Shown here one piece after another: positions 5,384-42,231 of a DNA stretch of 64,000 bases. This stretch comes from a virus. The stretch lies in the IMG/VR virus record IMGVR_UViG_3300021185_002806, one strand, 5' to 3'. The notes under the pieces are model-generated. The model was not told where the DNA came from. It did no database searches and was given only the letters and a program-made list of their open reading frames with translations. Within the stretch, counting starts at the first letter, position 1; every line of letters starts with the position of its first letter. Both the position numbers and the translations under genes were made by a program.

Positions 5384-6073
5384 TTAGTTCCAACGATAAA
5401 AAATGTGCATGCCAATTCTTCCTACTAAATCCATTCGATGGTCTTTGCTCCATGCAGGTGCCACATAAGTTGCGTGATAATGTGTTGCGCCCTCAGTGAT
5501 GCCTCGTAACCCATCATTATGCATAATGTCCCAAGCAATCATCTGTGCCTTGACCCAATTCTCTGAGCCTAATGGAATATCATCTGACTTGCCATCACAA
5601 TACCAACTAAACTGACACTTATGACGAATAGGAATATATACACGTTCACTATCATCTAAATCAGGATACTGTTTTGTCTTCCAGCTTTCCTTCATTTTAG
5701 CTTGATATACTACTCCACATATACTATCTGGGTAATGTGCATGTTTTACACGATTAAGAACAACATCAGCAACTGCCGCCATACCAGCCTTGTTATCGAT
5801 ACTTGATTCAAAGAAAATGTTTTGTGCTAAACAAAACTCATCCTGAAATTCATATGGGTCAATTAGAAAGAATTCAATATCTTTTCTATTTGAGATATCA
5901 ATAGTTTCTACTATAGTTGTTTTTACTGTATCAATATCTTTAGTTTTTTCGCCTGAGTCTACATTAAGTGTAGCACTTGCGGCATAGGCGGCAAATCCTA
6001 CTAATATACCCATCACTGTTAGGTTCATTAGTGTAACGAACCCACTACCCATTACTTTTAGAAATTTCAACAT
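5384..6073 (-). CDS. Cell wall hydrolase (SleB/Hydrolase_2)
   Basis: CLAQNIFFES, VVLNRV, CQFSWYCDGK, GATHYHA, IGMHIFY; N-terminal TM. Confidence 0.92.
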   Translation of the reverse strand: MLKFLKVMGSGFVTLMNLTVMGILVGFAAYAASATLNVDSGEKTKDIDTVKTTIVETIDISNRKDIEFFLIDPYEFQDEFCLAQNIFFESSIDNKAGMAAVADVVLNRVKHAHYPDSICGVVYQAKMKESWKTKQYPDLDDSERVYIPIRHKCQFSWYCDGKSDDIPLGSENWVKAQMIAWDIMHNDGLRGITEGATHYHATYVAPAWSKDHRMDLVGRIGMHIFYRWN

Positions 6074-6137
6074 TTATATCTGCCTCGCTTTTCTGATTAT
6101 GTATATACTATAACATGATTCGCTATTTTGTCAAGTT

Positions 6138-6695
6138 TTAAGATACATAAATTTTAAGTACTTCGTACTCAATATCACCTGCGGGACGCATAATTGCTAC
6201 AATATCACCAACTTTTGAGCCGATTAGTTCAGCGCCTAGTGGTGATTTGAAGCTAATTATTCCATTATTTGGGTCTGATTCGAACTCTCCGGCAATCGTA
6301 TATTCGATTGTCTTTTCTGTATCACAGTTTTCAATCTTAACTGTTGTACCAAAGGATACTTTTTCTTTCTTTCCTTTGGCCAAAGGCTCCATTACTGTTA
6401 CCTTTTCAAGCATTTCCTGTAGTCTATGAACTTCCATGTCTACTCGTTGCATATCTTCCAATGCAACCAAAAGTTCCTCATTTTCTTCAAGACCGCCTTG
6501 TAGTCTTGCGGCAGTTATACGTTCTGTTATTTCTGGTCGTTTATCTTGTGTTTCTAAAATCTTTCTGTATAAATCGTCTCTGCCTTTGGCACTTATTAAA
6601 TCCATATTATTTTTATTCTCACTTAAATTATTATTACTTGAACGCCCATATTTATCAGATTGTTCTACTTTAAAGCCCATAATAGTACTAGTCAT
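6138..6695 (-). CDS. greA: Transcription elongation factor GreA/GreB-like
   Basis: ARLQGGLEENEE, FGTTVKI, ISFKSPLGAELIG; true start may be near 6605. Confidence 0.85.
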   Translation of the reverse strand: MTSTIMGFKVEQSDKYGRSSNNNLSENKNNMDLISAKGRDDLYRKILETQDKRPEITERITAARLQGGLEENEELLVALEDMQRVDMEVHRLQEMLEKVTVMEPLAKGKKEKVSFGTTVKIENCDTEKTIEYTIAGEFESDPNNGIISFKSPLGAELIGSKVGDIVAIMRPAGDIEYEVLKIYVS

Positions 6696-8243: not shown

Positions 8244-8272
8244 ACTATAACATTATTTCGTTATTTTGTCAA
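8244..8272 (-). promoter_or_regulatory. Sigma70-like early promoter
   Basis: TTGACA-N17-TATAGT; near-copy at ~6107-6134. Confidence 0.7.
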
Positions 8273-9338: not shown

Positions 9339-10064
9339 TTACTCTTTTCTAAGTTTATTGTTTACTTCTATTACAGTCTTCAATATTTCACTTTTTGAGT
9401 AGTCATAAAAAGCCTCTGTGTCTTTAGGAAAACAATGTCCTCCAAAACCAAGTCCACCATCTTCATTAGGTGCCTTCATATGACTAGGTCCTATATTCTC
9501 AAATAAGCCTAATATATCTATCATCTTATCATGATTATAGGAATTGTCAAGATTATTTTTCATTTCATGAAAAAATGCTACTTTTATTGCTAACCAAGAG
9601 TTATGTACATATTTTATCATACTTGCTGTTGTTCTATCCACATCAAAAAAGAATACATTTAAATATGAAAATACTCCTCTCCAATAATGACAGCCTTGTG
9701 GTGATCCACCTAAGATAAAATGCTTTTGTCTATCCCAATCGTCTTTCGCCGTATTTGCTCTCAAAAACTCAGGATTATATGTAACATTATCAGGATACTG
9801 TTCCAACATGTCTGGTGGCACTGTACACTTTAATAATACTTTCATATCTCCTAGTTCTGATAATACTTGTCTGATTATACTATCATCACATTTGCCATTC
9901 ACTGTAGGTGTAGGAACACATACGACTGCACCTTTAGCCTTTAGATAATCTTGTATCTTATTATCATTTAGCTTTGGATCAATCCTTACTACTTGTTTTC
10001 CATTTTCTTCTAGTGATTTAGCTACTGTTTCCCCTACAAACCCACAACCTACTACTAATATCAT
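9339..10064 (-). CDS. UDP-glucose/GDP-mannose dehydrogenase-like (lacks C-terminal domain)
   Basis: GCGFVG, CVPTP, YNPEFLR, GFGGHCFPKD. Confidence 0.85.
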   Translation of the reverse strand: MILVVGCGFVGETVAKSLEENGKQVVRIDPKLNDNKIQDYLKAKGAVVCVPTPTVNGKCDDSIIRQVLSELGDMKVLLKCTVPPDMLEQYPDNVTYNPEFLRANTAKDDWDRQKHFILGGSPQGCHYWRGVFSYLNVFFFDVDRTTASMIKYVHNSWLAIKVAFFHEMKNNLDNSYNHDKMIDILGLFENIGPSHMKAPNEDGGLGFGGHCFPKDTEAFYDYSKSEILKTVIEVNNKLRKE

Positions 10065-37542: not shown

Positions 37543-38474
37543 TTAGTGCAAACCGTTAGGAACGATTATATAGTGAATAGATAAAACTACACCAACACTT
37601 GCACCTAAGCCAATCATCATCTTTATGAAGTCTTTGGTCACAAGAGGGAAAACAGTTTTAAACTTTTCTTTACCAGTAATTGTTGCCATAGCAAGTTCAC
37701 GACCACAATTGGTATATCATTCAGTTCCTTGAAGAACCAAAGAATTAGAAAATATACACAATCAATTATTGTAGCACTTCTTACATAACGTGTATTATGT
37801 TTTTCAATTACGATGTTTTGTATTTTACCACCACCAGTATAAAATATATAACCTAAGCCAAATACAAATACTGCACTTACCATTACCATTAAATCAAATG
37901 GGATTTGTCTTGGTAAGAATACGGCAATGTTTGCCATATCATGTGATAACCAAGTGAACCATAAAAAGCCAGTTGTTATCCACTGACCTACTCGCCAATA
38001 CATTTTATGATTTTCAGCGACTGGTTTTGCTTCGTCAAGTATTTTAGTAACACCAATCCAGATTACATATGCCGCCACAGCCGCAACTGCATAACCCATC
38101 ATTGATTTGACTAGCATCTTCTCTAATATAAATGTACTAGCAAATGCACTTAACACTAAGAAACTTGTACTTACTGGTACACCTATTCTTGTTAATATCA
38201 ATAGTAAGCCTGGTGCGGCGGCATGATACCATTGAATCTCTTGAAATGGAATTTTGTTTAATCGTCCGTAACTAATATCTCCACCATTAGTTGTCCAACC
38301 ATACCACAAAGTATAAAGCAGTACCGCACTTGCGGCTCCCCACATTATCTTCCAATTAAATTTTTCGTTATTTGATGCAATCCAAGTACCAAGAGTTTGT
38401 ACTGAATCGTTTGCTATTACTGAATATGCGGCAAATAGAAAACCTATTGCCATCCATAGGGTGAGTGCATCCAT
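37543..38474 (-). pseudogene. Multi-TM membrane protein (PiT/PHO4-like ANDS motif), frameshifted near 37708
   Basis: IANDSVQTLG, PVSTSF, HDMAN; after ELNDIP the hydrophobic C-terminus CGRELAM...IVPNGLH continues in another frame to 37543. Confidence 0.65.
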
Positions 38475-38644
38475 TTTTTATCTCCTTCTGCTTAACGTCT
38501 TTACCACGTTGCTCACATAATTAGACCAGGCTCGATTGATGCCTGGTTGTAACCTTATTGTTACTTTCATATTTATGAATGTAACACAAAAAAGATATTA
38601 AATCAATACACTTTTTAATTGAGTTGTTGATAAGTTGGGGAAAT

Positions 38645-38709
38645 AAAAAAGAGACAGTCAGCAATATAAAATGAAAGTGAGTAAAATATGGTTTGCCAAC
38701 CGTCTCTTA
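38645..38709 (-). terminator. 16-bp hairpin with 28-nt loop plus U-tract
   Basis: AAGAGACGGUUGGCAA pairs with UUGCUGACUGUCUCUU. Confidence 0.5.
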
Positions 38710-38742
38710 ATTTTTGATTACTTGGTATTGTAATCAGAAAAT

Positions 38743-38959
38743 ATAAGCAAAGTAGGAGGGACTTGGTTACACCCCCAACCCCTCGACACAGATACCATTC
38801 TGAATCCAGGGAACCTAGTTCCGTTCGGTAGAACGATGTGACTCTTAGCCTCTCAGCTTTGAACCTGGGTACCACCCCTAACTAGTCAAGTTCGACCGTC
38901 TGGTAACAGCCTCTTCCTTGCACTACAATCATTGAGTCGCTAAACTCTCTGATGCTTAT
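38743..38959 (-). ncRNA. Large structured ncRNA, manA-motif-like
   Basis: GC-rich island; AUAAGCA/UGCUUAU terminal stem; GUGCAAGGAA...GGUGGUACC; dedicated promoter. Confidence 0.7.
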
Positions 38960-38965
38960 GTTATT

Positions 38966-38994
38966 AATATAGCATAATGATTCGGTATTGTCAA
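38966..38994 (-). promoter_or_regulatory. Sigma70-like promoter for the ncRNA
   Basis: TTGACA-N17-TATATT with extended TG; predicted +1 at 38959. Confidence 0.75.
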
Positions 38995-41539: not shown

Positions 41540-41569
41540 ATATTTTCTTTATTAACCCCAAATTAAAAT

Positions 41570-41830
41570 ATGACTTTTCTGTTGCCAGGTAAGCCATCAA
41601 CCCCTACGTGCTTAAAACTAAGCCGCTAATGCCATTTCTGGCTCATAATTTGCGTTTGCAATTATAGTTTTTGACCAATAACGCAGTCATCCGGTAAACT
41701 CCACTTCACTTTCGCACCTGTCGATCCTAGTTCAGCCCCATCATAAAAACATTCAGTAAATGTGCTTATGGTGGAGCTGTGGGGTACTGCCCCCCAGTCC
41801 AGAATACGTCTACGTTGCTTCAACGTCTAC
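41570..41830 (-). ncRNA. ssrA: Circularly permuted two-piece tmRNA; tag (A)ANANYEPEMALAA
   Basis: Acceptor piece ...GGGGCAGUACCCCACAGCUCCACCA ends at 41769; 29-nt spacer; coding piece GGGGCUGAACUAGGAUCGAC starts at 41739; G3.U pair; tag ORF 41659-41618; outer ends approximate. Confidence 0.93.
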
Positions 41831-41835
41831 AATAT

Positions 41836-41866
41836 TATTTATACACGATAAACGTATATAAGTCAA
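41836..41866 (-). promoter_or_regulatory. Overlapping early and late promoter for tmRNA
   Basis: TTGACT-N17-TATAAA, whose -10 is part of TATAAATA. Confidence 0.6.
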
Positions 41867-41874
41867 TACATTAA

Positions 41875-42231
41875 TTAAAATGTAATTGATGTTCCGATTA
41901 CTGATTCAGTTCTTTCGAATGAATCGTTCAAATCATTTTTAAGATAAATTGTTACATTATCTTGTAGCGGGAATGAAAAGTTTAACATTTGCTTGTTCAA
42001 ATCTAAAAAATCTTTTCCATCAGCATCGATGTCCCATTTTGCACCGTAAGATGCAGTGATACCAAATAGTGGTTTTGCTACTGAAAACTCACCGTTTTGT
42101 GTATTTGCCTCAATCGCTCTTTCAAGTGATAGAGAAAACGTCATATCGTCTGATACAGACGTTCCTTCAGCCATCGCTGATGTTGTAAATAAGGCCGCAA
42201 CTAGCAGACCTGTTAGTGTTACTTTTTTCAT
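41875..42231 (-). CDS. Secreted outer-membrane beta-barrel-like protein
   Basis: Signal peptide (AMA), alternating beta strands, C-terminal Phe. Confidence 0.6.
   Translation of the reverse strand: MKKVTLTGLLVAALFTTSAMAEGTSVSDDMTFSLSLERAIEANTQNGEFSVAKPLFGITASYGAKWDIDADGKDFLDLNKQMLNFSFPLQDNVTIYLKNDLNDSFERTESVIGTSITF

Follow-up and report, generated by a model that had tools for sequence, protein, structure and literature searches.

The 64,000-nt contig IMGVR_UViG_3300021185_002806 (hereafter 'the window') probably carries, on its minus strand, a free-standing gene for a trans-acting ncRNA of the manA family, and the phage to which it belongs is a T4-like marine phage. The RNA joins a family that is already known, and its interest is that a comparison of relatives speaks against the label 'cis-regulatory' that this family bears. 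Since 2010 the manA motif has figured among the orphan riboswitch candidates, largely on account of its placement upstream of genes. The value of the RNA described herein is that it challenges this label and fits new cryo-EM data, and together with those data the findings lead to the testable proposal that a free RNA particle is produced in cells infected by T4-like phages of the sea, SAR11 phages among them. If the cage reading discussed below is true, some of the ocean's most abundant viruses would naturally produce a particle made of RNA alone. An isolate that carries a manA copy, Pelagibacter phage Mosig, exists for experiments.

A cmscan search against Rfam, which the preliminary description of this DNA had proposed as a check, yielded a match to manA (RF01745) at 38944..38746 (-) that covers the full length of the model (positions 1-192) with an E-value of 1.8e-11. 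The resemblance to manA that the preliminary description had pointed out is borne out by a covariance model score of 55.5 bits for the RNA itself, which exceeds the gathering score of 55.2 by a margin of 0.3 bits, and by scores of 58-75 bits for its homologues. No other Rfam family matches the RNA region at E-values up to 1. Throughout the window, at E-values up to 0.05, the only matches are manA and a permuted tmRNA at 41567-41883, with no 6S, RNase P or SRP RNA, and thus the possibility that the structured RNA is itself a known housekeeping RNA (6S, RNase P, SRP or tmRNA) found no match over its length. The conserved GUG.. and the GGUGGU(A/G) of L5 and ACC of L7 are present in the loops and junctions of the cmscan alignment, and the conserved manA loop and junction columns are either invariant or at least 90% conserved in an alignment of 56 relatives (A4, see below).

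The copy in phage Mosig (MT647606, 108164-108371, minus strand) scores 64 bits with Rfam and is unannotated in its record. Three other loci (L016, L049 and L123; L-numbers are our labels for manA homologue loci or contigs) are clear homologues by alignment, yet they fall under the Rfam gathering score. Because this pelagiphage subtype scores at or below the threshold, it is under-annotated and under-detected by standard annotation. The genome paper on phages Melnitz and Mosig treats their tmRNA and riboswitches, and a mention of manA was not found there. An 86-aa ORF at 38615..38875 (-) overlaps the RNA and was rejected as a coding candidate, as it has no Pfam match and the indels and compensatory changes in the region fit an RNA rather than a protein.

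When the RNA is folded as a single sequence, its stability does not differ significantly from that of shuffles (z -1.59), and therefore the structural support rests on covariation. Given this unremarkable fold and the thin Rfam margin, relatives were sought with a pattern built from two boxes common to the window and Mosig (GTGCAAGGAA, 25-50 nt, GGTGGTAC), which matches more than 119 IMG/VR contigs. After coding false positives were removed, 73 exact-non-redundant copies of the subtype were retained, and 56 sequences with at most 95% identity form alignment A4. Structure was scored on manA-type pairs that were written explicitly (57 pairs). Among cellular genome contigs, the first 120 matches listed for the RNA pattern were essentially all due to chance, and the only true manA RNA among them (L195) lies on NYWG01000240.1, a 6,096 bp contig binned to a Verrucomicrobiales MAG that is probably a mis-binned phage fragment.

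The manA core, comprising P1 through P9, is paired in 93.4% of cells in A4, compared with 30-47% for slid controls, and 36 of the manA pairs exhibit compensatory changes on both sides. The covariation score of 0.467 compares with 0.05-0.09 for slid controls and was not reached in any of 500 shuffles. An RNAalifold consensus of the 56 sequences likewise carries compensatory change in 33 of its 46 pairs. The strand is fixed by the frequent G-U pairs. The internal complementarities listed in the preliminary description correspond to CGUUC/GAACG, which forms P7, and to GGGGG/CCCUC (described as GGGGG/CCCUCC), which forms P9, and both of these stems covary. The covariation analysis that had been suggested for the motif thus supports the fold.

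Upstream of this structured region is a sigma-70-type (phage early) promoter at 38966..38994 (-), consisting of a -35 TTGACA element (38994..38989, -), a 17-nt spacer and the extended -10 sequence TGcTATATT, with its TATATT hexamer at 38971..38966 (-). The promoter TTGACA-N17-TATATT that had been claimed is therefore present on the minus strand, where a consensus scan gives 11 of 12 matches and the TG of the extended -10 is in place. Sites conforming to TTGACW-N16-18-TATADT number seven in the 64-kb window, all on the minus (coding) strand, whereas 0.56 would be expected by chance. This distribution indicates that the phage uses host-type promoters, and that the manA promoter is one of them. 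As a separate observation, the sigma-70-like promoters at window positions 6107-6134, 8244-8272 and 38966-38994 (-) have a common spacer motif, CGAATCA (CGAAATA in one), which also occurs in the manA promoters of L118, L123, L251-L254 and L020 and may be a regulator site.

The predicted transcription start, A38959, is located 7 nt past the -10 hexamer and is the first base of AUAAGCA. From this nucleotide to the end of the terminal helix, the predicted RNA spans 217 nt (38743..38959, -), and the GC content across the element is 0.44-0.455 compared with about 0.30-0.36 in its flanks, in agreement with its initial depiction as a GC-rich island. The pairing that had been noticed between this 5' terminus and a 3' UGCUUAU is present as well, and it forms a terminal helix, P0, between AUAAGCA (38953..38959, -) and UGCUUAU (38743..38749, -). 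This helix is absent from the Rfam manA model, but its sequence covaries in relatives, where it is replaced by AAUGC/GCAUU (UAAUGC/GCAUUA), AUAAUAG/CUAUUAU, UUGUUAAU/AUUAAUAA, ACAAUAUGC/GCAUAUUGU, AUAAGCAA/UUGCUUAU and UAUAGCAA/UUGCUAUA. The longest terminal helix averages 6.8 bp, compared with 4.5 +/- 0.13 bp in shuffled tails, and 68.9% of its cells are paired in a MAFFT alignment, compared with 23-51% in slid controls.

Of the 73 copies, 58 carry a promoter of the form TTGAC-N16-17-TATAnT whose spacing to the RNA is fixed, as counted by the occurrence of TTGNNN-N16-18-TANNNT ending 39-43 nt ahead of the GUGCAAGG box, and two more copies have one with slightly different spacing. Among the 58 promoter-type copies, 43 also carry, starting 14-33 nt past P9, a canonical terminator formed by a GC-rich hairpin and a U-run, and such terminators begin a few bases 3' of the terminal helix. 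Beyond the terminator, a further TTGAC...TATAAT promoter often appears, or else a late-type GATAAATA promoter that precedes an Rfam freshwater-2 RNA and a gene. For example, in L049 (10561-10644), L009 (6624-6706) and many other loci, the terminator is followed by the GATAAATA promoter, freshwater-2 (RF02980) and a gene for a protein of about 150 aa starting with MG; L049 also carries a glutamine riboswitch (9985-10032). On the basis of these sequence features, manA copies of this subtype appear mostly to be self-contained genes that have their own early promoter, are sealed at the ends and stop at a terminator. The earlier suggestion that the RNA stands alone rather than serving as a cis riboswitch thus gains support from the promoters, terminators and terminal helices of 73 copies, with the transcript itself being a prediction.

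These findings bear directly on the published hypothesis for manA, which was proposed to be a riboswitch and is sited upstream of non-homologous genes (Weinberg et al. 2010, PMC2864571), a proposal that later phage papers repeat. Rfam assigns the family the type Cis-reg, and a recent preprint still terms it 'putative cis-regulatory' (bioRxiv 10.64898/2026.07.01.735769). According to this hypothesis, the RNA would be a leader that senses a metabolite or condition and controls one or more downstream genes via a terminator or translation. Its complex fold with invariant loops is indeed aptamer-like. Furthermore, at the tmRNA-linked loci as well as in Mosig, L050 and L086, no terminator separates the RNA from an SD-bearing gene that begins 17-36 nt past it (25-34 nt in Mosig, L050 and L086), which is the classical 5'-UTR layout, and in the window the next gene is on the same strand and codes for a membrane protein. 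However, the genes of T4-like phages lie nearly all on one strand, such that a position upstream of a gene is the default, and this weakens the original cis-regulatory argument. The genes after terminator-less copies are unrelated in function, and they include those for rubrerythrin, peroxiredoxin, a NifU-like protein, gp32, the late-transcription coactivator and small unknown proteins.

An antiterminator, through which an expression platform would compete with the aptamer, is also not seen. At the 43 terminator-ended loci, the duplex energy of the terminator's 5' arm with the 3' part of the RNA averages -5.8 kcal/mol compared with -5.2 kcal/mol for shuffles (mean z -0.4), and the next genes either have promoters of their own or are convergent. 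A convergent next gene is found in L118, L123 and L251-L254, and also in L087 and L119. For these reasons, we consider a riboswitch or leader function to be an unlikely explanation for the RNA in the window. Because terminator-less copies do reside next to genes, a cis role may nevertheless exist somewhere in the manA family.

The window's own clade consists of seven contigs (the window, L118, L123 and L251-L254), all of which have a gene order composed of an FkbM-type methyltransferase gene, the promoter, manA, a small hairpin and a long-stem terminator. In the window, the small hairpin (UGAUUAC-8 nt-GUAAUCA; 38715..38736, -; dG -6.5, z -5.4) is situated between the RNA and the terminator. 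Its stem covaries, becoming UGAUUGC/GCAAUCA in L118 and L251-L253, and is replaced by the unrelated stem GGUUAUAU/AUAUAACC in L254. The downstream terminator that had been described earlier is present at 38641..38708 (-) in an atypical form, with a 16-bp stem (38708..38693 with 38664..38649), a conserved 28-nt loop (CCAUAUUUUACUCACUUUCAUU...) and a U-tract at 38648..38641 (dG -20.4, z -6.25). The terminator loop is also spanned by a short plus-strand ORF (MKVSK...), which is frame-shifted in L118, and we therefore do not regard it as coding.

In six of the seven clade members the next gene is convergent, and thus there is nothing to regulate in cis at those loci. In L118 this is a gene for a 308-aa class II aaRS-like protein (5596-6522, -; Pfam tRNA-synt_2) of about the size of EpmA/GenX, and in L123 the manA unit is followed by a minus-strand tRNA and then a minus-strand ORF. 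Only in the window is the next gene on the same strand. It codes for a 278-aa PHO4-like membrane protein (38474..37638, -) and is located 270 nt downstream of manA, and so read-through into this gene is possible. The protein is 92% identical to a 320-aa protein of L118 over 256 residues, after which its C-terminus diverges, possibly through a frameshift or truncation.

This PHO4-like gene has a 165-nt leader that L118 and L123 share at 87% identity, although in both of them a convergent gene keeps manA apart from it. Given that the leader is conserved with its gene and independently of manA, we assign it to the gene and place the end of the manA unit at the terminator (~38641). The leader (window 38475-38636, -) forms the hairpins ACCAGGC..GCCUGGU and AACGU..ACGUU, has a late-promoter-like ATAAATA box within a hairpin loop, and ends with ~60 nt that are identical in L118 and L123. 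It gives no Rfam match, and it is a candidate for a cis-regulatory leader of its own. With both a terminator and a separately conserved leader ahead of the next gene, the manA RNA of the window is not located in a 5' UTR. As this placement is a positional annotation rather than a structural criterion for the family, the assignment to manA stands.

The terminator of this clade raises the question of whether the hairpin itself might be the active part of the transcript. Its 28-nt loop, CCAUAUUUU(U)ACUCACUUUCAUU, is kept although the stem (14-16 bp in the clade) is replaced by a wholly different sequence in L123, and the element was encountered solely in the position just past manA, namely in six IMG/VR contigs (including L118 5537-5600 and L123 11957-12020) and in the window. 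Such conservation might be expected if the terminator hairpin served as a base-pairing small RNA with the manA domain as a stabilising 5' structure. We judge this explanation to be very improbable, since the element is limited to seven contigs compared with more than 100 manA copies that have ordinary terminators, no complementary target was found elsewhere in the window with up to three mismatches, and it would leave unexplained why the manA core is conserved.

The contig itself can be placed with the help of sequenced phages. A blastn search of phage records revealed that Pelagibacter phage Mosig (Kyanoviridae), the nearest isolate, matches over precisely the stretch of the manA element, at 74% identity, and that Methylophilales phage Melnitz matches across the tmRNA. 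Homologues of a neighbouring protein occur in T4-like myophages, and the auxiliary genes of the window (GMP reductase/IMPDH, UvdE, TctA and ferredoxin) are of the kind usually carried by large marine myophages. Together, these characteristics identify the window as part of a T4-like marine phage whose permuted tmRNA is of alphaproteobacterial type, and the host is probably SAR11 or another alphaproteobacterium. The habitat known for manA, marine T4-like phages, is thus also that of this RNA, whose relatives are found in Mosig and more than 100 IMG/VR contigs.

The proximity of manA to tmRNA is a recurrent feature of these genomes. At least 10 non-redundant promoter-less copies follow a same-strand permuted tmRNA at a distance of 10-55 nt, often with an SD-bearing gene next. 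In seven cyanophage-like contigs (L008, L024, L032, L035, L051, L052 and L067) the tmRNA directly precedes manA, L026 has an array of tmRNA, tRNA-Gly and manA, and manA lies 2.5-3.1 kb past the tmRNA in the window (2.6 kb), Mosig, L050, L118 and L123. Additional loci (L036, L070 and L122) have tRNAs within 100-330 nt of manA. These neighbourhoods put manA in the company of stable-RNA genes, which speaks for an RNA gene in its own right. In L024, the gene after manA codes for the late-transcription coactivator, which matches the order of tmRNA and then coactivator described for Melnitz.

An arrangement of this kind could mean that the RNA is an accessory of a phage stable-RNA and translation module, made and processed together with the tmRNA and tRNAs and acting alongside them during infection, for instance in trans-translation or in the handling of ribosomes. 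Yet most promoter-type loci are without a tmRNA in the DNA examined, where ARAGORN reports one in 13 of 111 loci, an undercount because the program misses some permuted tmRNAs that Rfam finds. The linkage may also reflect the mere clustering of RNA genes in T4-like genomes. We therefore regard participation in translation as a rather improbable main function.

Our preferred explanation is still that of a free-standing gene whose product acts in trans. Transcription by the host's sigma-70 RNA polymerase would begin at A38959, directed by the near-consensus early promoter, and the 217-nt RNA would fold into the P1-P9 core, with the AUAAGCA/UGCUUAU helix joining its first and last nucleotides. 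The small hairpin and the long-stem terminator would then end the unit ahead of the next gene's own leader. We infer that the manA RNA builds up early as a stable transcript whose action is in trans rather than on a neighbouring mRNA, where the start site, the 3' end and the stability of the RNA are predictions from sequence.

Some indication of how such an RNA might act comes from a July 2026 preprint, not peer reviewed, that describes cryo-EM structures of five manA RNAs (bioRxiv 10.64898/2026.07.01.735769). Pentamers are the building blocks of every assembly reported, which include decamers, an octamer and an icosahedral cage of 60 subunits (bioRxiv 10.64898/2026.07.01.735769). The RNA A0F1 forms the 60-mer cage, whereas 67AA, pho_A28C and pho34_A767 form decamers (bioRxiv 10.64898/2026.07.01.735769). 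The contacts within pentamers are either L5-L7' and L8-L9' kissing loops, or L5-L7' and L3-L8' together with docking of the GNRA loop L6 on P6' (bioRxiv 10.64898/2026.07.01.735769). These oligomers were formed in vitro only, by other members of the family, with RNA at ~3 mg/mL and 10 mM Mg2+ (bioRxiv 10.64898/2026.07.01.735769).

The window RNA belongs to the same family as these solved RNAs, and it possesses loops that could make the same contacts. L5 (GGUGGUAC) and L8 (AUGGUAU) can be compared with L3 (UUACCAGA), L7 (UACC) and L9 (UAACCAAG), among which there are the complementarities GGUA/UACC, UGGU/ACCA and UGGUA/UACCA, and L6 is the GNRA loop GAGA. Loops L3, L5, L7, L8 and L9 are near-invariant while the stems vary freely. 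The L5-L7 pairing is formed in 86.6% of cells in A4 with no compensatory change, L5 being invariant in a set that was gathered with L5 and the GUGCAAGGAA box held fixed. A GGTGGTB scan of IMG/VR for variants of L5 (GGUGGUAC) gave seven matches, none of which is a manA RNA. For L8-L9, compensatory change is found in only two cells of A4 (L041 and L044, with UGGAAU/AUUCCA), and there are 29 mismatches at one position.

Because the loops are complementary in the same manner as in the cryo-EM contacts, we take self-assembly to be the most likely mode of action of the window RNA, with the caveat that sequence cannot distinguish intramolecular from intermolecular contacts. The loop-loop contacts L5-L7', L8-L9' and L3-L8' and the L6-P6' contact, which drive the formation of decamers and a 60-mer cage elsewhere, would thus be possible for this RNA, and the self-assembled particle might bind or sequester some host or phage component during infection. 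A more far-reaching version of this model, which we put forward tentatively, is that manA is not a riboswitch at all but an early stable RNA, linked to the tmRNA/tRNA module, that would form pentamer-based rings or cages in SAR11 or cyanobacterial cells and, in trans, enclose or sequester its target.

Compared with the manA motif as originally described (RF01745, Weinberg et al. 2010), the RNA reported herein has the same multi-helix core, conserved loops and marine T4-like phage habitat. It differs in that it lies at the edge of the model's scores, carries an extra terminal helix and forms its own promoter-to-terminator unit rather than part of a 5' UTR, and the Mosig copy widens the host range of the motif to pelagimyophage-type phages. 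A second comparison is with the species 1 and 2 RNAs of phage T4 (rnaC/rnaD), which are stable non-coding RNAs encoded beside tRNA genes and expressed from early promoters. Species 1 and 2 arise by processing of a tRNA precursor; the window RNA, by contrast, has its own promoter and terminator, and we know of no sequence or structural relation between these RNAs and manA. Finally, the ROOL and GOLLD RNAs are large, structured, stand-alone ncRNAs, often phage-borne, that form homo-oligomers. Unlike manA, they are several hundred nucleotides in length, form dihedral assemblies and are unrelated to it in sequence and fold, but the manA unit resembles them in being stand-alone, highly structured and phage-borne.
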